This document shows, in pieces, positions 8,566 through 24,222 of a stretch of DNA of 64,000 nucleotides (positions within the stretch are counted from its first letter, which is position 1; each line of letters opens with the position of its first letter). The stretch is taken from contig JAFSOQ010000055.1 of NCBI GenBank assembly GCA_017446845.1, positions 983-64,982 on the forward strand. Reading direction: 5' to 3'. The translations under genes and the position numbers were made by a program. A model generated the notes under the pieces. The model did not search any database. It had not been told where the DNA came from and was given only the letters and a program-made list of their open reading frames with translations. Source of the stretch: Selenomonadaceae bacterium. Its GTDB lineage: Bacteria > Bacillota > Negativicutes > Selenomonadales > Selenomonadaceae.

Positions 8566-9696
8566 GTGGAAAAAATTTTGCAATTCATAGCGAAGGAAAC
8601 GGGCGGCGAAAGTTATCGCACGTCCAGAATGGAACTCGATATTGAAAATTCTTCCGAGCTGATTGAATACGAAGTGCCCGCCGAAATTGTTTCCAAACAC
8701 GCGGGCGAAACTCGTCCGCCGAAAAATTATTTTTCCCTTGAGGAACACGCTAAAAATTTTTCTTCAAGCGGACAGATTTTAAATTACTTTTTGGACGGCT
8801 CGCGGCACGTCTACAAAATTGACGACATTGCTTACAATCACGGTGTGCGCAAAATGATTTATCCGATTGTCGCCGGTCAAGTCGTGGCGGGCTGTTGTCG
8901 ACGCGTCGATAAAAAATTGCACGCGGAAAATTTTTCTGCGGAGATTGTCCTTGCCGTTCCCGACGTGACCAATCCCGACAGCCACAAAGGATTTTTTCCC
9001 GCGCTTGTCAGCAAAATTAATGAGCGTTTCAAAATAAAAATTTCAAAAATTTTGCCATACAAAACGGACAGTAAGCCCGCCGAAAAATTTGAAGACCGCG
9101 CCGTCGCCAAGATTATGGAGCACATGCACAACACCGAAATAAATTTTGTCGCCGAACTCGTCAGGCGCGGCAAGCTCGACCAAAAAAATTATCTCGTCAA
9201 GGACGGTTCGCTTGAGTATAAAGTTTTGACCGAGAGAAAATTTAACCCCAAGAATTACAGCTTTGTTATCGGCGTCTCGAAAAAATTTAATCCGCTGCTC
9301 GTGAAAAATTCCAAAGACAAAAACGATCCCGGACTTGTCGCCGACCTGCCGCTTTTTTATCGCACGCCCGTCACGATTTTTGAACGCGGCAATTTCCACG
9401 AAGGAAATAAATTTGCGGTGTGGTATGTTCGTCTGCGCGATAAAAAATATTCCGATTCGCCCTTTGACGGCGTTGTTAAGGTTGAAAAAATTTTGGTCAC
9501 GGATGCCGAGCGGGATAACGACAAAATCGACAGCGACGATGTAGATCTTTTGAGCGCGTATCTTATCAACGAGCGCAATCCTGTTTGCTACGGCGCGGAC
9601 GGTCGTTGGGCGAATCACATTTATCCGATTTTTCTTACCGAAAGTTTTATCAAGTCGAGATTTATTTCCGCAGAAACATTTTTGAACTTATTTTAA
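8566..9696 (+). CDS. NurA-like (RNase H-fold) nuclease, 376 aa
   Basis: GTG start with AGGAGG 5 nt upstream. NurA-type motif order: FLDGS (D77), MEH (E185), VKDGSL (D213), VIGVSKKF, IYPIFLTE near the C-terminus. It is immediately upstream of a HerA-like ATPase, as in HerA-NurA operons. Confidence 0.6.
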   Translation: MEKILQFIAKETGGESYRTSRMELDIENSSELIEYEVPAEIVSKHAGETRPPKNYFSLEEHAKNFSSSGQILNYFLDGSRHVYKIDDIAYNHGVRKMIYPIVAGQVVAGCCRRVDKKLHAENFSAEIVLAVPDVTNPDSHKGFFPALVSKINERFKIKISKILPYKTDSKPAEKFEDRAVAKIMEHMHNTEINFVAELVRRGKLDQKNYLVKDGSLEYKVLTERKFNPKNYSFVIGVSKKFNPLLVKNSKDKNDPGLVADLPLFYRTPVTIFERGNFHEGNKFAVWYVRLRDKKYSDSPFDGVVKVEKILVTDAERDNDKIDSDDVDLLSAYLINERNPVCYGADGRWANHIYPIFLTESFIKSRFISAETFLNLF

Positions 9697-9885
9697 ATTG
9701 GGCTAGAAATGCGCATGCATTTCGTACGGACGCGGCTACTCGGATAAAAATTTTTAAGCGGTGCGGCGCGTCAGCTGTTTGTCAACTTTTTAAAAGTTGT
9801 GCGCATGCATTTTCGTACGAACGCGGGGACAACGTTAAAAATTTTTAAGCGGTGCGGCGCGTCAGCCGGATGCAACGTCACGTTG
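9697..9885 (+). repeat. Copies (b1, b2) of the dispersed repeat family: two tandem ~90-nt units inserted between the NurA-like and HerA-like genes
   Basis: GCGCATGCATTT(T)CGTACG(G/A)ACGCGG...AAAAATTTTTAAGCGGTGCGGCGCGTCAGC occurs at 9711-9776 and again at 9801-9867 (period 90). The near-palindrome CAACTTTTTAAAAGTTG lies between the units. The element ends in GCAACGTCACGTTGC and is bounded by a duplicated 29-mer (9668-9696 and 9886-9914). Confidence 0.8.
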
Positions 9886-9923
9886 CCGCAGAAACATTTT
9901 TGAATTTATTTTGAGGTGAACAC

Positions 9924-11537
9924 ATGAGCGAGATTATCGGACGCGTCGCGGCTACTGAAAAATTCCCGTCGACCATGGACAAATTTTATTTTTGGACGAA
10001 CGCCGAATTCAGATTGAATGCCTTCGACGTGGTTAAAGTAAAACATTTGGACGAATCATTTTCTTTCGGCACGGTGGAAAATATTTTTCACATAACCGAC
10101 GCGAAAAGTTTTTTGACGAATTACATTTCCTGCGATTTTGGCGACACGAACATAAGCGCGCCGACTTTGCGAATCGGCATGAATTATGTTGAGGTCGCCG
10201 TTTCTTTTAACACAAAAAATATTTATACGCCCGTCAAAAATGATTCGGCGGTTTACCTGGCAAGCGCGGAAGAAATCGAAATGGCGTTGGGGCTCGACAA
10301 GATAAAAAATAAATTGCCCTGCGGCTATCTGAAAATGTACGAAGGTCACGCCGACAAAGAAATTATTTTGCCCGTGAATCTCGACGCACAATTTATTTTA
10401 GGTCCGGAAGGTGCTCACTTAAATATTTCGGGCATATCGGGCTTGGCGGCGAAAACCAGTTACGCGATGTTCCTTATGAAGTCCGTGCAAGAAAATTTTT
10501 CCGATTGCGCGTTCATAATTTTTAACGTTAAGGGCAAAGACTTAATGGCGATTCATCAACCGAACGACGAAGACTCCGCGCCGATTTATAAAAATTTGAA
10601 TTTGAGCGGCGAGCCTTTTGAAAATGTTCATTACTACGCGCCGCGAGACAATAAAAGCGTCACGAGCTACTTGCCGCCCGAAGACGCCGAAAATTATCTT
10701 GCCGAAGGTCTGATGAAAAAATTCGCTTACATTTACGAGGACGACCGCGAGTCTTTGGAAATGCTCTTCGCCGACATTGACGACACGACGCAGACGATGG
10801 ACTCGATTATCAGCAAAATTATCGACCCGAACGATTACGACTTCGGCGGGATTTCTAATTGGGACAGTTTTTTAAATAAGGTCAACGAATTGTCGCAGAA
10901 AGGTAATGCCAAAGAAATTTCCGTTTTGAGTTGGCGCAAGTTCAAACGCATAATCAACAAGGCGATAAAAAATGATGCGATGTTCGTAAATCACACGGCT
11001 CCGAATTTTGAATGCCGCCTCGAAGACGAATTGAAAAATATTTCGGCGGGTTCGGTCAGCGTGATTGACATTGCAAAGCTCGGCAGCGATAAGCAGGCGT
11101 TTGCTTTCGGCGACGTACTCAAGACGATTTACAAACTCAAGCTCGGCGATTACGATATAACTCCGCCGTCGAAGATAATTATCTTCATGGACGAGTTAAA
11201 TAAATTTGCCGGAAAGGATACGACGAAAAATTCTCCGATATTGCGCCAGATTTTGGACGTGGCAGAGCGCGGACGGTCATTGGGAATAATTTTATTCGGC
11301 GCGGAACAATTTCGCTCGAACATTCACCCGCGAGTTACGGGGAATTGTTCAACGCTTGCTTTCGGTCGCACGAACGTTTTAGAGACGACGACCAAAGATT
11401 ATTCTGCATTGCCCTCGACATATAAAAATATTTTGACGCGACTGGAGCAGGGCGAATACGTCATACAAAATCCGATTTTCCGTTCGCTGCTCAAAGTCAA
11501 ATTCCCGAAGCCCGCTTACAAACAGTTCAAAGATTAG
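9924..11537 (+). CDS. HerA-like (FtsK-HerA superfamily, DUF87-type) ATPase with N-terminal HAS-barrel, 537 aa
   Basis: N-terminal GRVAATEKFPSTMDKFYFWTN...FDVVKV looks like a HAS barrel. The P-loop GISGLAAKTS (res 170-179) has Ala in place of the usual Gly before Lys. Walker B is IIIFMDELNKF (D423-E424). The arginine-finger region AERGRSLGIILFGAEQFRS is like HerA EGRK.G..l...SQRPS. Confidence 0.7.
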   Translation: MSEIIGRVAATEKFPSTMDKFYFWTNAEFRLNAFDVVKVKHLDESFSFGTVENIFHITDAKSFLTNYISCDFGDTNISAPTLRIGMNYVEVAVSFNTKNIYTPVKNDSAVYLASAEEIEMALGLDKIKNKLPCGYLKMYEGHADKEIILPVNLDAQFILGPEGAHLNISGISGLAAKTSYAMFLMKSVQENFSDCAFIIFNVKGKDLMAIHQPNDEDSAPIYKNLNLSGEPFENVHYYAPRDNKSVTSYLPPEDAENYLAEGLMKKFAYIYEDDRESLEMLFADIDDTTQTMDSIISKIIDPNDYDFGGISNWDSFLNKVNELSQKGNAKEISVLSWRKFKRIINKAIKNDAMFVNHTAPNFECRLEDELKNISAGSVSVIDIAKLGSDKQAFAFGDVLKTIYKLKLGDYDITPPSKIIIFMDELNKFAGKDTTKNSPILRQILDVAERGRSLGIILFGAEQFRSNIHPRVTGNCSTLAFGRTNVLETTTKDYSALPSTYKNILTRLEQGEYVIQNPIFRSLLKVKFPKPAYKQFKD

Positions 11538-11548
11538 GAGGAAAAATT

Positions 11549-12988
11549 ATGGCAAATTATGTTTTCGGCGCAAATCTAATTGAAAATCTCACAACGGGCA
11601 TGTATCAAAATCCTCTTGTGATTTTTCGCGAGTATATTCAAAATTCTTGCGACGCGATAGACAAAGCCCGCGCAGATGAAATTTTGGCGGCTGACGAAGG
11701 CTCGATAGAAATTACAATCGATAAGGACGCCCGCCGAATCACAATCGAAGACAATGGCACGGGAATTCCTGTTTTAGATTTCAAGCCGACTTTAACAAGT
11801 ATTGCCGCTTCCGATAAAAATTTGGAGAGTAACAGAGGTTTTCGCGGTATCGGACGACTTTGCGGCGTGGCTTATTGCAAAGAATTGCGTTTTACTTCGA
11901 CGGCCAAAGATGAAGTCGTTCAATCGACGATGATAATCAACGCCGAGAACATGTGCAAAAAATTTTACGGCAAAGAAAAAATCAAAGCGGAAGATTTGCT
12001 TGACGAATCCATAAATTTTCCGAAAGTTTCCGTCGCCGACCCTGACGAGCATTTTTTTCGCGTTGAGCTGATTGATATTGTCGACACCAACAACGATTTG
12101 CTCGACAAGGAAAAAGTTCGCGAGTATTTATCATTCGTCGCGCCCGTCGATTACAAAAACAGTTTAGGTTTTAAAGGTCTTCAAAATAAAATCTTAGAGC
12201 ACGCTGCTAAGCTTAATTTTAAGATTGCCGGTTATAAAATTCTTGTTGACGGCGAGCATCTTTACAAGCCTTACAAGTCGAATTTCAAGACTACTCACAA
12301 TGGAGCCGATGAAATTTTTGATATAGATTTTCGCGACTTCTACGATGACGAAAAAAATTTAATTGCGTGGAGTTGGATTGGCTTATCGAAATTTAAAGGC
12401 GTCATTGACCAAACGAGCGGCACGCCCGATAATTTGATGCGCGGCATTCGACTTCGCGCGGGCAATATTCAAATCGGCGACCAAGAGGCACTTAAGCATT
12501 TATTCAGCGAGGCACGCGGCACGAATTATTTTATCGGCGAAGTTCATGCTGTTGACAAAAATTTGATTCCGAACGGTCGACGAGATTATTTTGTCGAAAA
12601 TAAAGCTTGTAACACTTTTGAAGGCGAGCTGAGAAAATATTTCGATGAACTCTACAAAATTTATCACGCGGCGTCGGACATCAGAGGCTTTCAAAAAAGG
12701 ATTAGTGCTCCCGCTGAAGCTGTGCAAGACTTTCAACAAGGACGCTCCATATTTAAAAATCAAGCTGAACTCAATAGCGAACTTGCCAAGCTGAATAAAA
12801 TTGCAACGACTGCCGAAAATAAAATTGAGTCTGTTCGTAAAGAGGCAGAGCAAAATCCTGATTCAGCTTTGTCGCGTGTCGTACTGCGCATGACAGAAAA
12901 TAAAATACCCCCCCCGGTCAACATGATTCGGAACAAGAGGAAACAAAAACAAAACAATTTCCGCCCGTTCATTGGCGCAAAGATTTAA
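11549..12988 (+). CDS. GHKL/Bergerat-fold ATPase (HATPase_c_3 / MORC-Hsp90-like) with a coiled-coil C-terminal region; the annotated stop probably follows a frameshift
   Basis: The N box is REYIQNSCDAIDKA (E28, N32, D35). The G1 box is IEDNGTGI (D68). The G2 box is RGFRGIGRL. The start is 11 nt after the HerA-like stop, with GAGGAA as SD. A C8 run at 12908-12915 precedes an alternative frame that stays open to 13086. Confidence 0.7.
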   Translation: MANYVFGANLIENLTTGMYQNPLVIFREYIQNSCDAIDKARADEILAADEGSIEITIDKDARRITIEDNGTGIPVLDFKPTLTSIAASDKNLESNRGFRGIGRLCGVAYCKELRFTSTAKDEVVQSTMIINAENMCKKFYGKEKIKAEDLLDESINFPKVSVADPDEHFFRVELIDIVDTNNDLLDKEKVREYLSFVAPVDYKNSLGFKGLQNKILEHAAKLNFKIAGYKILVDGEHLYKPYKSNFKTTHNGADEIFDIDFRDFYDDEKNLIAWSWIGLSKFKGVIDQTSGTPDNLMRGIRLRAGNIQIGDQEALKHLFSEARGTNYFIGEVHAVDKNLIPNGRRDYFVENKACNTFEGELRKYFDELYKIYHAASDIRGFQKRISAPAEAVQDFQQGRSIFKNQAELNSELAKLNKIATTAENKIESVRKEAEQNPDSALSRVVLRMTENKIPPPVNMIRNKRKQKQNNFRPFIGAKI

Positions 12989-13082
12989 AAAGGCTTTACA
13001 CTGAAATTAAAAAGGTCATTCTCAAAAATCCTAAAATTTCGGGCGATAAGCTCCTTGACAAGATTGAAGAGGTGCTCGCCAA

Positions 13083-14921
13083 ATGAGCCGCCGCGTTTTG
13101 TTGTTGGAGCCGAATTGGAAGAACAAATATCCGCCCGCAAATTTAATGAAGTTGGCGACGTATTTTCGGAGCGTGTGCAAAGATGACGTGCGCTTTTACA
13201 AGGGCGACTTAAAAAATTTTGCCGCACAACTTTTGCTTGAAGAATTTTTTTCGGGCGAAGTCGACAAGGAAAATCTTTTTGCGCCCGAACAAAATGACGC
13301 CGCGCAGAAATTTTGGCGGCAAGAAAAATTTTTGTTGGAGTTTATAAAGACGGGGAAAAATTCTTTACTCGAATTCATGCGCGAGGAAGATTTTTTTTAC
13401 GAGTACAGCTTGAAAAAACTTCATCGCCGATTCAAAGCCGAAAACTTCCCGACGTTCGATATAATCTGTGTCAATTCGCTGTTCACGTTCTTTTTTGATG
13501 AGACAGTCAGCGCGATAAATTTTGCCAAGAAATTTCTGGCGGAAGACGGGAAAATTTTTGTCGGAGGAGTGGCGGCGACTCTCGTGCCGAAATTTTTTGA
13601 GGACGCGACCGGAATCAAACCGCATGAAGGACTTTTGGATAAGCCCGACGACCTCGGCAAAAACGACGACGTGATTATCGACACCCTGCCGCAAGATTAT
13701 TCAATCCTCGACGAAATCGACTACAAATATCCCGCCGCCGACGCTTACATAACTTACACGACGCGCGGTTGTATTCGCAAATGTTCTTTTTGCGCGGTCA
13801 GCAAGCTTGAACCCGAATATAAAGACCACGTGGAAATTTTTAATCAGCTCAAGCACACCGAAGAAAATTTCGGCGCGAAAAGAAATCTTCTGCTCATGGA
13901 TAACAACGTCCTTGCCTCGAAAAAATTTGATGAGATTATCGACGAGATTAAAGCTTGCGGTTTCGCGAAGGGCGCGAATTATCTGCCGCCCGACGAATAT
14001 TCTATCGCTCTGGAAAATCTCCGAGCCGGTTTCAACGACCGCGCTTATCTGAAAAAAATAATTTATCTCTATGACGAACTCGAAAAGAAGTTGCCCGAAA
14101 ATTTGGCGGGCGAATTTTATTCCGCGCGCGAGAAAAATTTTTTGCTCAGCTTGATAACCGCGTCTAAAGAAAAAATTTTCGCGCTTGATGATTTTGTCCG
14201 CCCGCTGTTTGAAAAATATTTCAAGCGCAAAAGTCTCGTCCGCTACGTCGATTTTAATCAGGGGCTTGACGCGCGGCTTGTCGACGATCACAAAATGGCG
14301 CGGCTTGCCGAATTGAATATCCGACCCATGCGCATTGCCTTCGACCACATTGAACAGCGCGACATTTATGAACGGGCAATTCGACTGGCGGCAAAGTACG
14401 GCATTCGTGACTTGTCGAATTATCTGCTGTATAATTTTTTGGACACGCCCGCCGATTTTTATAACCGCTTGAAAATAAATATCGACCTTTGCGAGGATTT
14501 GGACGTTGCGATTTATTCTTTCCCGATGAAATATTGTCCGATTGACGCCCCGCAATATTTCAGCAACCGCGATTATATCGGGCGGCATTGGAATAAAAAA
14601 TTTATTCGGGCGATTCAGGCGATAATAAATTCCACCAAGGGTAAAGTCGGGCGCGGACGTGAATTTTTTGAAAAGGCATTCGGGAAAAATCTCGACGAGT
14701 TCAGGGAATTGCTTTACATGCCCGAACCTTTTATAATTTACAGGTTAAGATACGAGGACAATTTGACGGAGTCTTGGCGCGAAAAATTTTCAGCCCTCAA
14801 TGACGACGAACGAACCTTGGCAGAAAAAATTATCGAACAGAATAAATTTTCCGATAAAGATATTGGCGACGCGCCGAAAAAAATTCGGGAGCTTTTGGAA
14901 TTCTACAGGATACGGCGTTAA
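13083..14921 (+). CDS. Radical SAM enzyme with an N-terminal B12-binding-like domain (class-B-like architecture), 612 aa
   Basis: The CxxxCxxC cluster is TTRGCIRKCSFCAV (C230, C234, C237; nt 13770-13793). The N-terminal RRVLLLEPNWKNKYPPANLMKLATYF resembles the B12-domain start of class B rSAMs. The C-terminal ~250 aa are uncharacterised. Confidence 0.75.
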   Translation: MSRRVLLLEPNWKNKYPPANLMKLATYFRSVCKDDVRFYKGDLKNFAAQLLLEEFFSGEVDKENLFAPEQNDAAQKFWRQEKFLLEFIKTGKNSLLEFMREEDFFYEYSLKKLHRRFKAENFPTFDIICVNSLFTFFFDETVSAINFAKKFLAEDGKIFVGGVAATLVPKFFEDATGIKPHEGLLDKPDDLGKNDDVIIDTLPQDYSILDEIDYKYPAADAYITYTTRGCIRKCSFCAVSKLEPEYKDHVEIFNQLKHTEENFGAKRNLLLMDNNVLASKKFDEIIDEIKACGFAKGANYLPPDEYSIALENLRAGFNDRAYLKKIIYLYDELEKKLPENLAGEFYSAREKNFLLSLITASKEKIFALDDFVRPLFEKYFKRKSLVRYVDFNQGLDARLVDDHKMARLAELNIRPMRIAFDHIEQRDIYERAIRLAAKYGIRDLSNYLLYNFLDTPADFYNRLKINIDLCEDLDVAIYSFPMKYCPIDAPQYFSNRDYIGRHWNKKFIRAIQAIINSTKGKVGRGREFFEKAFGKNLDEFRELLYMPEPFIIYRLRYEDNLTESWREKFSALNDDERTLAEKIIEQNKFSDKDIGDAPKKIRELLEFYRIRR

Positions 14922-18316: not shown

Positions 18317-19423
18317 TCAATAAAGTTTTTTCAGCTTGGTGTCTTTGTAGTAGTGCGCCAAAATTTTTTCGTAAGACCAACCGTTTCCGGCGTAATCTCT
18401 CGCGCCGACTTGACTCATGCCGACGCCGTGTCCGCGTCCGTAGCCCGTAAAAATAATTTCGTCGCCGTCAAGTTTCATGTCGAAAAGAGTACTCGGCAAA
18501 GAAAATTTCCTGCGTAAATCGTTACCCGTGAGCGTGACGGTTTTTTTTGTGCCGACAATCTGCGCGGACTTCACGCGACCCGAAGAAGTTCTGTCACCGG
18601 AACTTTTGCCGATAGTCAACTTGCTCAGCTTAATTTCCTTCGTGTCGCCGAAATTGTCGCCGAACCTTGAAGAAAAATCTTTGACGGGAACTTTAACACT
18701 CCACGGCTCGCCGAGCTTGATAATTTCTCTGACTGCGACAAGATACGGCGTGGCAGTCCCCCAAACATCACCGACGTCCTCCGTCATGCCGCCGCTGTCC
18801 GCGTGAAAATTCGTGTCGATGAGTTTTTCCTTGTAAACCAAAACTCCGCCGCGCGTCTCGTCAATCGCCCTGTTAATCGAATCAAAATTCGTGACGCCGA
18901 TATAAACTTGACAGTGAGTCGAGTCACACAAGTCGTAGCCGTCTTTAACGTGCCGTCCGCGATTTTTCAACGCAAACGAACGCGCTGCCACCGCTTGAGC
19001 TTTCAGAGCCTCCAAAGGATACGACGGCGACATTTCCTTCGACACGACCCCGCGCAGATATTCTTCGACCGGCGCAATGTTTATTACCTTGAGCGAATCT
19101 TTTTCCTTGTTGACGCTGACGCCGCCGTAATATTCCTTGTCGTTAATCGTTATGCGCAAATCTTGCAGCGGAACTTTTTCGGGAAGAATTTCAATCGCAT
19201 TAATATCCATCTTCGCGAACTCGACGACAAAACTGCCGTCCGCCGGAATTTTTTTCAGGATATTGCCTTTGGCGGCGTTAATCATGACGCAGGGCGCGGA
19301 AACTTTCAAAGACACCTGCTTGAGTCCGTCGACGAGTCCGACTTTAACTACGGGTTGCCAAGTTCCTGCCTCCGCCCGACTCATCATCAATAAAATTATC
19401 AGTACAAAAATTTTTTTAATCAT
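18317..19423 (-). CDS. SpoIID/LytB-domain protein (lytic transglycosylase / amidase enhancer family)
   Basis: Signal peptide [19 protein letters not shown]. SpoIID motifs are EEYLRGVVSKEMSPSYPLEALKAQAVAARSFAL, CDSTHCQVY and FHADSGGMTE. The start is set at ATG 19423, giving an 8-nt ATGATTAA overlap with the upstream gene. Confidence 0.85.
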   Translation of the reverse strand: MIKKIFVLIILLMMSRAEAGTWQPVVKVGLVDGLKQVSLKVSAPCVMINAAKGNILKKIPADGSFVVEFAKMDINAIEILPEKVPLQDLRITINDKEYYGGVSVNKEKDSLKVINIAPVEEYLRGVVSKEMSPSYPLEALKAQAVAARSFALKNRGRHVKDGYDLCDSTHCQVYIGVTNFDSINRAIDETRGGVLVYKEKLIDTNFHADSGGMTEDVGDVWGTATPYLVAVREIIKLGEPWSVKVPVKDFSSRFGDNFGDTKEIKLSKLTIGKSSGDRTSSGRVKSAQIVGTKKTVTLTGNDLRRKFSLPSTLFDMKLDGDEIIFTGYGRGHGVGMSQVGARDYAGNGWSYEKILAHYYKDTKLKKLY

Positions 19424-21038
19424 GTTCAACCTTCTTAAAAATTTTACAACGAATAACTTCCGAACCGACCGCTTGCTCGCTCTCGTAGAGTACGCGGAAA
19501 TTTTTATCGCTCGACAGCTCATCAAAAAGATACGGTTTTTCGCTCGTAACGATTATGTGCGTGAAATCGTAACGATTGAAAAAATCTTTGTAATTGATTT
19601 TGCCGTTCATGAAGTCCAGATACTCTCCGAGAATATTTTTTTGAGTGCCGTTGTTGGCAGGAATGAAAACTTCCGAGCGCGAGTCGATATAATATTTTAT
19701 TCCGTAACTGCCCGCCAGCCCGCCGATACCTTGAGGAACGTAAAGCGAAATATTTTCGGGTCGTTCATCTCGGAGCAAAAATTCTATCGCGTTCGTATAA
19801 GTTCGCAGCGGCTTGCTTTGAGTGCCTTGGAGCGTCGTGAAGAAAATTACGCTGACAACTACAAAACCGATAAGCAGTGACAAAACTTTTCGCGGGAGTA
19901 GCGTCGGATAAAGTATTCGCCCTTCGATTTTTACAATCAGCAAATTATACGCTATAAACAGCAGCGTAGCGAAGAATAAAATTTTCGGCAACAACGCAAC
20001 GTTTTCAAAATCACTTTGGATAAAACTTATAATGACTGTGGTATTTGCGGCGACGAGCAGGAAAACCAATATCGTCATGGGCATACGCATGGTTTTGAAT
20101 TTTTCAACGCTGAGTTCTCGCCACGCATAAGCAATCGGAATCGTCGCCAAAAGATAAAATAAAATCACATTGCGCCCGTGCATTATCGCCATAAAAGTTA
20201 GTCCGCCGCTTAGGAAAATATATCTCAACGGAACTTTGAATCTTGCCAGAGAAATAATCAGTAAAGCTTCTGTGGCGTAAAAAAATTTTCCGCGGAAATC
20301 ATGCGCACTGGGCGTGAACATTTCGGGAATGTTTTCGCTAATCATGCTTATGCCGTAAGAGCGGAAAACGTAAGTCATTGCCTCGACGCCGTAAGGATTA
20401 ATCAGCCCGCCGATAAAAATCCCGCCCAGTGCCGCGAGTAAAAATTTTATGTGGCGAAAATTTTTTACGAACAGAAACGGCAGACATAAAACCAACGACA
20501 TCAGCCAAACCGCCGCGTGAAAATTTACCAGCGCAATACTCAAGAACGGCAACGGAATTAAAAATTTTGCGTTTTCGGTGCGCGTAAATTTTTCCAGGCA
20601 GAAAACTTCGATTAAAAATAACATCGCCGATAAAATGTGCGGACGCGTGACAATCGCCGGCGCGATTAAAAATCCGACGATTAAACTCATAACGAACGAT
20701 AAAACTTTATTGCCGTCGCTGACGAACAAACACAGCCGCCAATAAATTAAAACAATCGCCGTCCCGACAACAGCGTCAATGGCTACGAGTCCGTCGAAAC
20801 CGAAATTTTTATACGCCTCCCAAAACAAAACTCCGCTCAACCACTGTTGCGCGACGAGTTGTAAATTTTCATGGACAGTAAACGGGTCGACGTGCGGAAA
20901 GCCGTGCTCAAGAATATATTTTCCCAAATTAATCACAAAGCGCGTGTCTGCCTCTTCGATCCATTTGAAAAATATTTGCCAATAAACCACGCATGCCGAC
21001 AAAGAAATTGCTTGGATAAGCGGTAAAAATCTATTCAT
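19416..21038 (-). CDS. Large polytopic membrane protein, GT-C-like (putative glycosyltransferase / polymerase); function uncertain
   Basis: About 12 or more hydrophobic segments followed by a C-terminal soluble ~120 aa. The start is set at ATG 21038 (ATGAATAG overlap with the upstream stop). No diagnostic motif was recognised. Confidence 0.4.
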
Positions 21039-22593
21039 TTTTTTTGTCCTCATGGTAAACTTTTTCGGCGTTGATTTTCCAAACGTCTGCCTTCGGAAAT
21101 TTCCCGCCAATCGCACAAACCGCCGCAATTGCCGTCAACATGCTGTGATCCATGTTGTTATAACGGTGCTGACCGTTGCGCCCGATGCAGTAAAGATTTT
21201 TAATTTCGTCGAGCGCGGTGCGCAGTTCGGAAATATTTTCGTAGGTGTCGAAGTAGGCGGGATAAGCCTTCGGAACTTTGACTTGCACGCCGTGGCGAAC
21301 GGCAGCCGCGTCGATAACGCCGATTGAGGCGAGTTCGTCCGCCGCGAATTTTATAAAGTCGTCACTGCTCATTTGCCAGAGTTCGTCGCCTTCCGCGCAA
21401 AAATATTCTAAGCCGAGCCAAACAGTATTTTCAGGGTCGGCAACCATGTACGGCGACCAGTTGTTGAAAATTTGCAGGCGACCGAGTTTAACCGACGGCT
21501 CTTGAATATAAATCCAGCAATCGGGAACAATGTCGCCGAGCGTTTTTATTTTGGTCTGATTTTTTAAAAGAAGTTTATCGACGAGCAACCCGACGGTTAT
21601 AAAGTCGCGATAAGGCAAGCCGCGAGCAATTTGCAGCTGACGAAGATTTAATCCGTCGTCGAGAGCTTCGGCAAGTTCGGCAAGCGGCCTACTCGACAAA
21701 AAATAATCGGCGGGAAAAGTCAACATACCTGCAGGAGATTCGACGCGCACGGATTTTATAACGTTATTCACGACATGAAAACTTTTGACGTTGGAAGATG
21801 TAAGAACTTCGCCGCCGAGTTTTTTAATGTCGTCAGCCAATTTTCCCCAGAGTTGCCCCGGACCGAACTTCGGGTAGAAAAATCTTTCGATAAGGGAAGT
21901 TTCGCCCGCGCCGTCTTTTGAGCCGAAAGTTTTTTTGAAAAAGTCCAAAATTGTTTTGCCGAGCGACAAACCTTTGATTCGTTGGGAACCCCAATCCGCG
22001 CCGATTTGTTTAGGCGAACGTCCCCAAACTTTGGTTGTATAATCGCGGAAAAAAGTTTCGTAGAGTTTTTGCCCGAAGCGATTAATCATAAAATCTTCAA
22101 GCGTATTTTCCTCGCGCTGACTTAACTTAGCCTTGAGAAAACTCGTGCCGATAGAAAACATTTCAACAAGTCCGAGATTTTTAATCGTCTCCAAACTCAA
22201 CGAAATCGGATAGGAAAAAAATTTCCGCCGATAAAAAATTCTGGACACGCGATTGCGATTTAAAAAAACTTCGTCGACTTCTTCGGGATTGGCACCGCCC
22301 TCCGTCAAAACCGATTCGCGTCCCAAAATTTTATCGTCGAGAGCGGGCGCACCTTGAGGTTGCAAAAGTTCATTCCACAGCTTTAAAATTTCCTCGTCCT
22401 TGGAAAAAAATCTGTGCCCGCCGATGTCCATGCGGTTGCCGTTGAAATTCATTGTGCGCGAAATGCCGCCGACGAAATTTTCTTTTTCCAAAACAATCGG
22501 CTTGATTTCGGTATGTTTCAAAAGATAATAAGCGGCAGTCAAGCCGGCAGGTCCCGCGCCGATTATTATCGCGTGTTGTTTCCTTTTAAGCAA
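21031..22593 (-). CDS. NAD(P)/FAD-dependent oxidoreductase (amine-oxidase / UDP-galactopyranose-mutase-like fold)
   Basis: N-terminal dinucleotide-binding motif [17 protein letters not shown]...[13 protein letters not shown], followed by DIGGHRFF. Confidence 0.7.
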
Positions 22594-22632
22594 AAAATTA
22601 TTCCCTCCGTTATTTTGTTTTATTTTAAAGGC

Positions 22633-24222
22633 TTAAAAATTTCTGTCGACGTTGTATTTCGTGACGGCTTCGACGGGCGACTTGACGGAATTCATAGGGC
22701 AACAAACTTGGCAACCGCGAAAATCATCGTGCAAAATCCGATAGCGTGCGGACGCATACTCGAACGAATTCAAAATCTTTTCCCAGTCGACAAATTCTTT
22801 TCCGTCGGCGTCGTGCTCGATAAAATTTTTTATGTTCAAAGTCGGCTCGAACCAGCCGCAAAAATCCAATCTGCCGTCGGGATATAAATCAATCTCATTC
22901 CACGGCGCAAAACAAATTTCCCTGTCAGCCTCCTGCTTTAAATGCAAACTCGGCGAAATGTCATCGACCATTGAAAGTTCTTTTTTACCGCACGCGCGGC
23001 GAATCTCGTTGCGTTTTTTAAATTCGTTTAGTATCGAACGACCTTCCGCCAATTTTAAAATCTTCGCGTATTTTTTATTCAGCTCGTCAATCGGAATTGC
23101 CTCGACTTCCTGCTGAAGACTTGCCGCCTCGCCCGTCGGCATCCACAAGCGGAAATAAATTATAATCTTCTCGGCAAGCACCCGCTCCAATTCCATCATG
23201 GTTTTCATTGCCGGGCGCGATATTTCCGGATTGGAAAAAAATTCGCCGCTCATGTCGTTTTCCGTGTAGTCGAAGAAAAATACGATAAAGCCCGCGTGCA
23301 ATTCCAACGACAGCTCCACAAAGTCTAAAATATCGTCGGCGTTGTCTTTATTCACGACCATCGACAAATCGGGCGCGAAACAAAGTTTGTCAGCTGCCTC
23401 AAGTTTCTTGAGATAATTTTTGATGTTGCGAATCATAATCGGGAACATTTTTTTAGCGGTCGACGAGTCGTCCGAATCCCAACAACTTTTCGCGAAAACG
23501 TCGGCATTGGACGCGTTGATTGAGAAATGCGCCTTGAAAAGATTTTTCGCGGCAAGTTCCTGAAATTTTTCGTTGAAGGCAATTCCGTTCGATTCGGTCA
23601 TCAAAGTTATATGCGGGAAATTTTCGCTCATGAACTTCATGTAGTTATAACTTTCCTTGGCAAAGAACGCGTCGCCGCCCGTGATTAGCACCACGCCTAT
23701 TTTATCGTAAATCGGTCGGCAAAGTTCATAATACCAACTCGGAATCATGGCATGGGTCGCCTCGTCGCCGAAACCGCACCGCACTCCGCAATAGCGACAT
23801 TTGGCGTTGCAGGCGTTCGTTATTCTGATTCTCAAGAGTCCGTCTTTAAGTTCGGTCTTGCAATCGGGATGACGCTCCAAAATTTTCGGCAAGGCACTTT
23901 CAATTTCTGCGCGGTAACGATTTTCCTTGAAACCGAACTTTTCAAAGTGCACGAGCGGATTTATATTCACGTCGGGATTTTTTTTCAAGTAATCGGTCGT
24001 CGAGAAAAATGCCGACGGATTTTTTCCCTCGCGCCAACCGACATTCAAATAATGATTCGCCGCGTCGAGATATTTTCCAAAGCCGTAAGTTTTGCAATAC
24101 CATTCCGAATCAAACAGCAGAGAATTTTCAATCAGTTTTTTATCTTCCGAGTCGGGCACTTGCGGCGGCTCGGATTTTTTTTCACTGCCGAAAAGTTTAT
24201 CTAAGATTTTCAATTCAATCAC
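22633..24222 (-). CDS. Radical SAM / SPASM-domain protein with an N-terminal repeat region
   Basis: CxxxCxxC in ITNACNAKCRYCGV. Cys-rich C-terminus (CFAPW...FCGWF...FRGCQVCCPMN) of SPASM/twitch type. GTG start at 24222. Confidence 0.75.
   Translation of the reverse strand: MIELKILDKLFGSEKKSEPPQVPDSEDKKLIENSLLFDSEWYCKTYGFGKYLDAANHYLNVGWREGKNPSAFFSTTDYLKKNPDVNINPLVHFEKFGFKENRYRAEIESALPKILERHPDCKTELKDGLLRIRITNACNAKCRYCGVRCGFGDEATHAMIPSWYYELCRPIYDKIGVVLITGGDAFFAKESYNYMKFMSENFPHITLMTESNGIAFNEKFQELAAKNLFKAHFSINASNADVFAKSCWDSDDSSTAKKMFPIMIRNIKNYLKKLEAADKLCFAPDLSMVVNKDNADDILDFVELSLELHAGFIVFFFDYTENDMSGEFFSNPEISRPAMKTMMELERVLAEKIIIYFRLWMPTGEAASLQQEVEAIPIDELNKKYAKILKLAEGRSILNEFKKRNEIRRACGKKELSMVDDISPSLHLKQEADREICFAPWNEIDLYPDGRLDFCGWFEPTLNIKNFIEHDADGKEFVDWEKILNSFEYASARYRILHDDFRGCQVCCPMNSVKSPVEAVTKYNVDRNF

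Follow-up and report, generated by a model that had tools for sequence, protein, structure and literature searches.

The NurA-HerA pair of Deinococcus radiodurans, represented by structure 7f6d, has been studied as a two-protein repair machine, and DNA-degrading translocase-nuclease activity has been shown for this complex and for homologous archaeal NurA-HerA complexes. In Sir2-HerA and DUF4297-HerA (Gao_Her), which spread horizontally, a hexameric HerA-family ATPase is combined with a nuclease or other effector. To our knowledge, no defence system based on NurA-HerA has been described. DISARM consists of DrmA, DrmB and DrmC together with a DrmMI or DrmMII methyltransferase. PD-Lambda-5 is a compact pair with both restriction-modification and abortive infection character (Vassallo et al. 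2022, PMC9519451), in which partner B is a 291-aa Dam-like methyltransferase. Iyer, Abhiman and Aravind (2008, PMC2292703) described GHKL/MORC-type ATPases in restriction-modification systems, in a paper that makes no mention of HerA, NurA or radical SAM.

The window considered here, that is, the whole stretch of DNA that was analysed, covers 64,000 nucleotides from a Selenomonadaceae bacterium. The initial annotation proposed a four-gene, same-strand operon within it, and all four reading frames are found on the plus strand: gene A, a NurA-like nuclease with a GTG start (8566-9696, 376 aa); gene B, a Deinococcus-type HerA ATPase (9924-11537, 537 aa); gene C, a GHKL (Bergerat-fold) ATPase truncated by a frameshift (11549-12988, 479 aa); and gene D, a class-B-like radical-SAM enzyme with an N-terminal B12-binding-like Rossmann domain (13083-14921, 612 aa). 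The spacer between HerA and GHKL measures 11 nt, as had been claimed. The neighbours of the cassette in the window are housekeeping genes (folate genes, udg and rbfA-nrnA-truB). We lean, without strong conviction, toward reading the cassette as a mobile four-gene, DNA-targeting, restriction-like immunity system of anaerobic prokaryotes; no member of the family has experimental evidence for defence.

Each of the described systems shares part of this architecture. Genes A and B are homologous to the D. radiodurans pair, with the same variant P-loop and the same adjacency of the two genes, but the pair in the cassette is nearly always accompanied by GHKL and rSAM and is mobile. In contrast to Sir2-HerA and DUF4297-HerA, the partner of HerA is NurA, two further enzymes are present, and HerA belongs to the Deinococcus-type clade. 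The cassette resembles DISARM in its inferred logic, a helicase/nuclease restriction module with a modification module, yet the window has no Drm genes. PD-Lambda-5_A is likewise missing from the window. As in the GHKL/MORC systems, a HATPase_c_3-type Bergerat-fold ATPase occurs in a DNA-conflict operon, but its partner is a radical-SAM enzyme rather than a methylase or restriction endonuclease. The proposal that the set corresponds to no named system was borne out: PADLOC v2 gave no significant match for any of the four proteins (the best, mad8 for HerA at 7.5e-4, is marginal) and no Her/Sir2/DUF4297 (Gao_Her), MADS, pVip or Drm signature in the window proteins, NCBIfam has no model for the cassette families, and a full-text literature search found no paper uniting NurA, HerA, GHKL and radical SAM.

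The description of the 376-aa protein as NurA-like stands by predicted fold but not by sequence profile. No Pfam model, NurA PF09376 included, matches gene A at E<=0.1; the sole phmmer match in PDB, 7f6d_H, is not significant (E 2.6), and a family profile search against PDB sequences returned no match. An AF2 model of the protein (pLDDT 72.5), compared with PDB by Foldseek, matches D. radiodurans NurA 7f6d_G (E 1.3e-11, TM 0.56/0.62) and Sulfolobus solfataricus NurA 2ygk_A (E 2.1e-6), and these NurA structures are the only matches at E<=1e-3. Residues D77, E126, D213 and H351 are invariant in the homologue alignment, with D77 (FLDGSR) and D213 (KDGSLEY) on predicted beta-strands of the model; we infer that the four form the active site.

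Gene B is far more readily placed. A single-sequence phmmer search matches D. radiodurans HerA 7f6d_B at E 2.6e-35, and the family profile does so at E 2.9e-48, spanning the N-terminal region and the ATPase core (residues 4-258 and 403-561). Walker A (K177/T178), Walker B (D423/E424) and the arginine finger (R449/R451) are intact and invariant among homologues. The P-loop, NISGISGLAAKTS, had been called atypical; this is no defect, since the motif recurs in the D. radiodurans HerA structure as GGHINISGISGVATKTSYA. Assignment to the bacterial Deinococcus-type HerA clade of the FtsK-HerA superfamily holds, as judged by sequence comparison. The herA gene is directly downstream of nurA in most loci, and the two genes abut in most relatives. 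In the window they are parted by an insertion of 218 nt (9695-9912, no strand assigned). Here a 30-nt duplication of the NurA 3' end (9665-9694 and 9883-9912) flanks a repeat, 91 nt from start to start, with a 56-nt core at 9720-9775 and 9811-9866. An Rfam search of the insertion gave no match, and the repeat is confined to three assemblies of the window's own strain.

Gene C matches Pfam HATPase_c_3 at 1.4e-11 (45 bits, cut-off 25), and its profile matches the HtpG/Hsp90 N-domain at 1.9e-9; the best sequence matches are to Hsp90/HtpG N-domains only. The GHKL boxes had been described as intact, and every residue in question is invariant: E28, N32 and D35 in the N box, D68 and G72 in G1, and G97-G102 in G2. 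Relatives are about 505-560 aa long, compared with 479 aa in the window, where the reading frame shifts at a tract of 8 C (12908-12915, plus strand, inside gene C). The displaced 3' end, read from the sequence in the -1 frame (12916-13086, plus strand), encodes a conserved C-terminal helix and matches the family consensus ...ERKLISKIFxII...KIExEL. Its TGA stop (13084-13086) overlaps the ATG of gene D at 13083, so that the ATGA overlap predicted after correction of the C tract is real. GHKL stop and rSAM start overlap in most loci checked. As it stands, the window gene has lost the conserved C-terminal stretch of about 55 residues and the coupling to rSAM.

The 64-kb window contains just one other C or G run of at least seven. 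At least 12 relatives with diverged flanking sequence carry a homopolymer at the corresponding position, 6-12 C long or, in locus L031, 12 G, and both in-frame and out-of-frame states occur among relatives. All three assemblies of the window's strain have 8 C. Because the tract recurs at the same position with lengths from 6 to 12, it is a candidate phase-variation switch; this role is inferred, switching within a population has not been shown, and assembly error could explain part of the length differences among metagenome-assembled genomes. Phase-variable modification genes of defence systems include Streptomyces pglX, with its G tract, and the mod genes of phasevarions. Like these, the cassette carries a homopolymer in a gene of a putative modification module, with a length that varies and a frame that is ON in some strains and OFF in others; here, however, the tract is near the 3' end, and the OFF state cuts off no more than the C-terminal helix and uncouples the downstream gene. 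The hypervariability of this homopolymer resembles that of contingency loci.

Gene D scores just below the cut-off of Pfam Radical_SAM PF04055 (2.9e-6, 28.0 bits against 29.5), and PF04055 is precomputed for many of its homologues. Its cysteines C230-x3-C234-x2-C237, a CxxxCxxC motif, are invariant in the homologue alignment. The best Foldseek matches of the AF2 model (pLDDT 80.9) are TsrM 6wte (2e-6) and AprD4 6fd2 (5e-3), with modest TM scores of 0.35-0.49 and about 10% identity. The likeness lies in a two-domain layout, a Rossmann-like N-domain followed by the rSAM barrel; the gene D family differs in its large helical insertions and in a C-terminal extension that is likewise helical. Of these closest structural relatives, both of which act on small molecules, TsrM binds B12 and AprD4 does not. 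Divergent relatives of gene D show weak matches to B12-binding PF02310 (1.4e-4, below cut-off). A DNA-binding domain was not recognised in the gene D protein. On the strength of CxxxCxxC and the modelled fold, gene D can be taken as a class-B-like radical-SAM enzyme, for which there are no cobalamin-binding data and no known substrate. The motif residues named in the initial annotation for the four proteins are all invariant in alignments of 27-30 diverse homologues, and, since the catalytic motifs are thus kept across phyla, each of the four is probably an active enzyme.

Elsewhere the gene order is kept across distant phyla, in the majority of loci whether these are anchored on gene A or on gene D. 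Of 65 rSAM-anchored genome loci whose upstream sequence was long enough to judge, 52 have the order A-B-C-D, as do 39 of 40 NurA-anchored metagenome loci and 12 of 21 IMG/VR loci (predicted viral contigs). Fortuitous adjacency can be set aside with near certainty, given that over 100 loci from different phyla share the order and the overlapping stop and start. The loci span seven bacterial phyla and one archaeon, with hosts among the Bacillota, Synergistota, Planctomycetota, Bacteroidota, Chloroflexota, Endomicrobia and Cloacimonadota and in the Methanomicrobiales. The distribution is patchy, with about 558 loci in 185,579 species-representative genomes. The family also numbers 405 clusters at 50% identity (E<=1e-30). 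The rSAM gene occurs alone in 4 of 65 loci and with GHKL alone in 5 of 65; the window-type NurA-HerA clade lacks GHKL-rSAM in a single locus of 40, and HerA is truncated there. Such an asymmetry is typical of restriction-modification.

Close relatives within Selenomonadaceae carry the cassette at different sites, and no flanking family exceeds 8 of 80 loci. The cassette is conserved and horizontally mobile, and, as the flanks differ between genomes, the rSAM is not a housekeeping family fixed at this locus. Recombinases or known defence genes are frequent in these flanks. Immediate neighbours include serine recombinases, IS21 IstB, HNH and SLFN-AlbA_2; pAgo (four ORFs, best 1e-48) with SIR2-APAZ (four); and type IV restriction enzymes, PbeA and PD-Lambda-5_A, none of these being compared with genomic background. 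In some relatives the neighbours are housekeeping or repair genes (ClpB, an AddA-like helicase-nuclease, PolA, UvrC). GHKL-rSAM-only, rSAM-only and fragmented versions are also present among Selenomonadaceae.

A portable core, made up of the rSAM gene and frequently the GHKL gene as well, is swapped among effectors. Two DISARM-like variant loci, L049 and L182, encode true homologues of DrmA (8.6e-163) and DrmB (6e-53), a NERD-UvrD helicase and rSAM, and in L182 the GHKL gene and then an Mrr_cat gene follow rSAM. DrmA and DrmB are confined to these two loci, which carry NERD-UvrD and Mrr_cat in place of the PLD protein DrmC; 14.5 kb of sequence showed no recognisable methyltransferase. In L175, L177 and L179, PD-Lambda-5_A (up to 9.5e-72) lies directly upstream of rSAM, which holds the position of the Dam-like methyltransferase of canonical PD-Lambda-5; the canonical pair was confirmed in Pseudomonas phage OQ658368, where B scores 2.9e-111 and has a DPPY motif. 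The PD-Lambda-5_A-rSAM pair lies in accessory regions and adjoins an integrase in L177 and L179, with AbiD as well in L179. L180 combines HNH-WYL with GHKL-rSAM. In Marinitoga camini virus 1 a short rSAM gene is convergent with HerA (3.3e-99) and NurA (2.2e-33), and L185 is a phage-borne rSAM-only copy among replication genes (DnaE and a RecA-like gene). Occupancy of the methyltransferase slot in two restriction-like systems lends indirect support to the earlier guess of a nucleic-acid or nucleotide modifier. That rSAM replaces the methyltransferase is an inference from position, and a methyltransferase encoded elsewhere is not excluded.

In the restriction-like system that we favour, NurA-HerA would be the effector against invading DNA, an ATP-driven hexameric translocase with a nuclease dimer that, we infer, threads DNA in from its ends or at nicks and degrades it. 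GHKL-rSAM, translationally coupled and portable, would be the discrimination or modification module. Its GHKL ATPase may engage DNA, and rSAM may mark host DNA by radical chemistry, or tell self from invader in some other way, thereby licensing or restraining the NurA-HerA nuclease. Both roles are inferred from the combination of rSAM with other effectors in the methyltransferase slot; the defence role itself and DNA as the rSAM substrate are inferences also. The window system is in an altered state, in which the poly-C frameshift breaks the GHKL/rSAM overlap and the 218-nt insertion parts NurA from HerA. A bolder version, which we hold only tentatively and think doubtful as a whole, makes GHKL-rSAM a new epigenetic module: a clamp delivers a cobalamin-type rSAM to host DNA, and the resulting carbon or phosphorus mark, impossible for conventional SAM methyltransferases, is an oxygen-sensitive self label serving interchangeable effectors (NurA-HerA, DrmAB/NERD/Mrr, PD-Lambda-5_A, HNH-WYL) and switched by poly-C in Selenomonadaceae.

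The same core could instead defend by other chemistry, with GHKL sensing infection, rSAM making a viperin-like nucleotide analogue or damaging nucleic acid, and NurA-HerA as a second effector. Radical-SAM defence effectors are known (pVips; Ophion OpnA), the nearest rSAM folds act on small molecules, and phage-borne rSAM-only copies among replication genes, as in L185, also fit nucleotide metabolism; but there is no PADLOC pVip match, rSAM occupies the methyltransferase position in two restriction-like systems, and the persistence of rSAM-only and GHKL-rSAM-only loci in housekeeping contexts fits a harmless modifier better than a toxin. We consider rSAM unlikely to be an effector or signal-maker of this kind. 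Rather more improbable is an anaerobe-specific pathway of DNA repair or recombination, with end resection by NurA-HerA of the kind known from Deinococcus and archaea, a MutL-like GHKL protein, and an rSAM that reverses or otherwise processes lesions in the manner of spore photoproduct lyase. The nearest homologues of known structure (7f6d) were studied as repair proteins, and the housekeeping surroundings in the window, like the AddA-like, PolA or UvrC genes next to some relatives, would suit such a role. Repair is hard to reconcile with so patchy a distribution, with insertion sites that vary within one family, with carriage by an isolated temperate virus and by contigs predicted to be viral, with combination of the core with DrmAB, PD-Lambda-5_A, Mrr and HNH modules, or with a GHKL gene that contains a hypervariable homopolymer.

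The window locus might, irrespective of the family's role in other genomes, be a decaying, non-functional remnant. Loss of the GHKL C-terminus and of rSAM coupling, the insertion between NurA and HerA, and the partial or fragmented cassettes of Selenomonadaceae relatives keep this a possibility to be taken seriously, if not one we expect to prove right. In other respects, however, the four ORFs are intact and keep every catalytic residue, the frameshift falls exactly in the conserved variable-length homopolymer, which suggests reversible switching, and the same state is found in three assemblies.

The cassette is found in gut, rumen and sediment anaerobes, a group that defence screens built on E. 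coli or Bacillus cover poorly. Should it prove to be a defence system, it would represent a widespread new family of prokaryotic immunity in such anaerobes and would give the Deinococcus-type bacterial NurA-HerA clade a function outside repair. If rSAM marks DNA, it would represent a DNA modification enzyme of a new class, with a new self/non-self chemistry, relevant to phage therapy and to the genetic tractability of anaerobes, and possibly an enzymatic tool. Its function is directly testable, since Selenomonas noxia ATCC 43541, Frisingicoccus caecimuris DSM 28559 and Desulfosporosinus sp. HMP52, all of them in culture, carry the cassette.

The four-gene cassette occupies the plus strand of the window, with open reading frames at 8566-9696 (gene A, a NurA-like nuclease), 9924-11537 (gene B, a HerA ATPase), 11549-12988 (gene C, a GHKL ATPase of 479 residues) and 13083-14921 (gene D, a radical-SAM enzyme, here rSAM). 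The initial annotation had the same four same-strand genes and the same flanks, a spermidine-synthase-like gene on one side and rbfA-nrnA-truB on the other; the former proves to be membrane-fused. The source is a rumen Selenomonadaceae MAG, and assemblies from at least three samples, in NCBI and ENA, encode identical proteins. At 0.43-0.46 the G+C content is unremarkable, the window ranging from 0.43 to 0.48. A 218-nt insertion (9695-9912), specific to this strain and missing from all other loci, separates the NurA stop from the HerA start. Its components are 30 nt duplicated from the 3' end of NurA and a repeat with a palindromic core, the copies of which start 91 nt apart. The 227-nt spacer between genes A and B gave no Rfam family match and no convincing terminator.

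Species-representative genomes were scanned with an rSAM alignment, giving at least 558 loci, of which 80 were fetched. A metagenome scan with a NurA alignment supplied 80 further loci, and IMG/VR supplied 22. Family HMMs answered positively the question of whether the four families co-occur elsewhere: the order NurA-HerA-GHKL-rSAM was recovered in 52 of the 65 genome loci that extend far enough upstream, in 39 of the 40 NurA-anchored loci that extend far enough downstream, and in 12 of 21 loci on viral contigs. The GHKL stop and rSAM start overlap as ATGA in most loci checked. Hosts include Bacillota, Synergistota, Planctomycetota, Bacteroidota, Chloroflexota, Endomicrobia, Cloacimonadota and one Methanomicrobiales archaeon, all anaerobe-type lineages judging from record names. 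An exhaustive profile search returned 405 clusters at 50% identity (E<=1e-30).

By sequence, gene A matches nothing in Pfam, NCBIfam or the PDB in single-sequence or profile searches, and its proposed NurA-like identity finds no support there; it is supported by predicted structure. An AlphaFold2 model (pLDDT 72.5, built on 28 homologues) has significant structural matches to NurA only, namely 7f6d_G from the solved Deinococcus radiodurans NurA-HerA complex (E 1.3e-11) and 2ygk from S. solfataricus (2e-6). The family of gene A is thus resolved by structure prediction alone, and the structure models used in this work were built on shallow alignments (28 and 12 sequences). Gene B matches D. radiodurans HerA with an E-value of 2.6e-35, or 2.9e-48 using the family profile, as expected for the HerA-like ATPase that was proposed. 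Its P-loop, NISGISGLAAKTS, had been called atypical. The variant is real but is not a defect, as the solved D. radiodurans HerA aligns with the same motif; on alignment evidence it is a hallmark of the HerA clade of gene B. Gene C scores 45 bits to HATPase_c_3, over the cut-off of 25, and also matches Hsp90/HtpG N-domains, in keeping with the Bergerat fold assigned to it.

The radical-SAM assignment of gene D rests on an invariant CxxxCxxC motif and on a model (pLDDT 80.9) whose predicted fold resembles TsrM and AprD4, two-domain enzymes of the class-B type; the Pfam Radical_SAM score, 28.0 bits, is slightly below the 29.5 cut-off. The catalytic residues named for the cassette proteins from sequence alone are all invariant across multi-phylum alignments. 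Searches of rSAM against PDB sequences, single-sequence and profile, returned noise only; NCBIfam gave marginal matches (E of at least 0.0018, to P-methyltransferase, BchE and HpnJ) that were not taken as membership; a fold search of BFVD found only generic COG1032 radical-SAM proteins; and long rSAM relatives checked for domain fusions included none that was informative.

The key new result is that where NurA-HerA is missing, rSAM joins other partners, and so constitutes a portable core. In two loci, L049 from Selenomonas and L182, the genes upstream of rSAM encode DrmA (PADLOC, 8.6e-163), DrmB (6e-53) and a NERD-UvrD helicase, with an SF1-helicase-like gene preceding DrmA. The DISARM-like operon spans 982-12138 in L049 and 23-14586 in L182, and in the latter genes for a GHKL protein and an Mrr_cat protein lie 3' of rSAM. 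These loci share DrmA and DrmB with DISARM but have no recognisable methyltransferase within the 14.5 kb available. This arrangement with rSAM is undescribed in the literature searched.

In three other loci a PD-Lambda-5_A homologue (up to 9.5e-72), with a ParB-like N-terminus and a DGNRR motif, is encoded directly upstream of rSAM (L175, 7897-11620; L177, 8352-11611; L179, 8383-11623). The pair has an integrase nearby in L177 and L179; L179 also has AbiD. A divergent GHKL protein had been considered as the partner in L175 and L177 and was rejected (hhalign probability <1%). PD-Lambda-5 was originally described as a compact RM+Abi system (PMC9519451). In agreement with this, its canonical B component, checked in Pseudomonas phage OQ658368 (2.9e-111), is a Dam-like methyltransferase of 291 residues that carries a DPPY motif. 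Since that methyltransferase is the canonical partner of PD-Lambda-5_A, rSAM occupies the methyltransferase slot in these three loci. Another locus, L180, has an HNH-WYL gene and an unknown gene followed by GHKL-rSAM. In Marinitoga camini virus 1 (KP836355.1; L187, 5860-9686), an isolated temperate virus, a short rSAM gene is convergent with HerA (3.3e-99) and NurA (2.2e-33) genes of the same clade as those of the cassette, and there is no GHKL gene. The viral rSAM, at 360 residues, is minimal, without the helical inserts and C-terminal extension.

Among the 65 genome loci, four have rSAM only and five have GHKL-rSAM only. NurA-HerA without GHKL-rSAM occurs in 1 of 40 loci, where HerA is truncated. 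Such an imbalance would be expected if the nuclease module depended on GHKL-rSAM and not the reverse, a one-way dependence also seen in restriction-modification.

As separate observations, full-length rSAM stands alone, with none of the other three cassette genes, in two Synergistales/Fretibacterium MAGs (L027, 7111-11803; L045, 7204-11800), directly 3' of a ClpB-like gene in the first and of a same-sized reading frame, its identity not scanned, in the second. An 80-kb viral contig has a distant relative of rSAM, at 37% identity, amid phage replication genes for a DnaE-type polymerase and a RecA-like protein (L185, 3033-10975).

Relatives compared at the speE-like/rbfA junction have the rbfA side in common in only three close cases and the upstream side in none. 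Flanking gene content varies: when flank reading frames were clustered in search of a conserved fifth gene, no family reached more than 8 of the 80 loci. The 150 nearest-neighbour reading frames include serine recombinases, IS21 IstB, HNH, XRE-type HTH and SLFN-AlbA_2/HATPase_c_4 proteins, pAgo (four, best 1e-48) with SIR2-APAZ (four), type IV restriction enzymes, PbeA, DolB, mad3 and PD-Lambda-5_A. These recombinases, insertion sequence and defence genes suggest mobile, defence-island-like neighbourhoods, although no genomic background comparison was made. In one locus (L051, 11870-14138) an unknown 258-residue reading frame lies directly downstream of a complete cassette, and after it comes another HATPase_c_3 protein, a different one of 489 residues.

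The GHKL protein of the window is short, at 479 residues versus about 505-560 in relatives. A tract of eight C at 12908-12915 shifts the reading frame, and the -1 frame encodes the conserved C-terminal helix as far as the ATGA overlap with rSAM, an overlap that had been predicted for a corrected frameshift. Local decay of this copy is a rival explanation to a contingency tract. A homopolymer of 6-12 C is present at the same position near the GHKL 3' end, between completely diverged flanks, in at least 12 relatives (L004, L005, L007, L008, L009, L012, L017, L018, L021, L023, L087 and L031, the last a Synergistaceae locus with 12 G). Only one other C or G run of at least 7 occurs in the 64-kb window. 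The tract is in frame in L004, L006, L012, L031, L084 and L087, and out of frame in the window, L005, L007, L008, L009, L021, L023 and L088. The poly-C thus bears the signature of phase variation and is a candidate contingency tract; switching is not demonstrated, because all three assemblies of this strain show eight C.

The best-supported reading of the cassette is a restriction-like immunity system. NurA-HerA would degrade DNA, an activity known for homologues, and GHKL-rSAM would serve as a discrimination or modification module. Gene position, modular swapping and the asymmetry among loci are the grounds for inferring that role and that rSAM probably acts on DNA; no chemistry has been shown. 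Marking of self DNA by a radical-SAM enzyme would be categorically new, and we hold it only as a tentative and rather doubtful possibility. A rival is that rSAM acts as an effector or makes a nucleotide analogue. Another rival, an anaerobe-specific repair pathway, is a poor fit to the patchy distribution, to the presence on viral contigs, to the variable homopolymer and to the Drm, PD-Lambda-5 and Mrr partners.

The claim that no named system unites the four components stands against PADLOC v2, NCBIfam and full-text literature, subscription-only papers not being covered. The cassette is not described in the literature examined on radical-SAM-containing, HerA-based and DISARM-related systems, in that on Ophion, ARMADA and the YprA-family survey, or in the 2008 MORC paper and the 2026 domain-centric screen. 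Ophion combines a radical-SAM component with PHP and PRTase. We class the cassette within a known kind, the multi-gene nuclease/ATPase defence systems.

Elsewhere in the window, gene calls of the identical contig place a separate minus-strand cluster at about 18317-24213. It encodes SpoIID, a 540-residue protein without a Pfam match, an amine-oxidase/FAD protein and a further radical-SAM protein, of 526 residues and unrelated to gene D.
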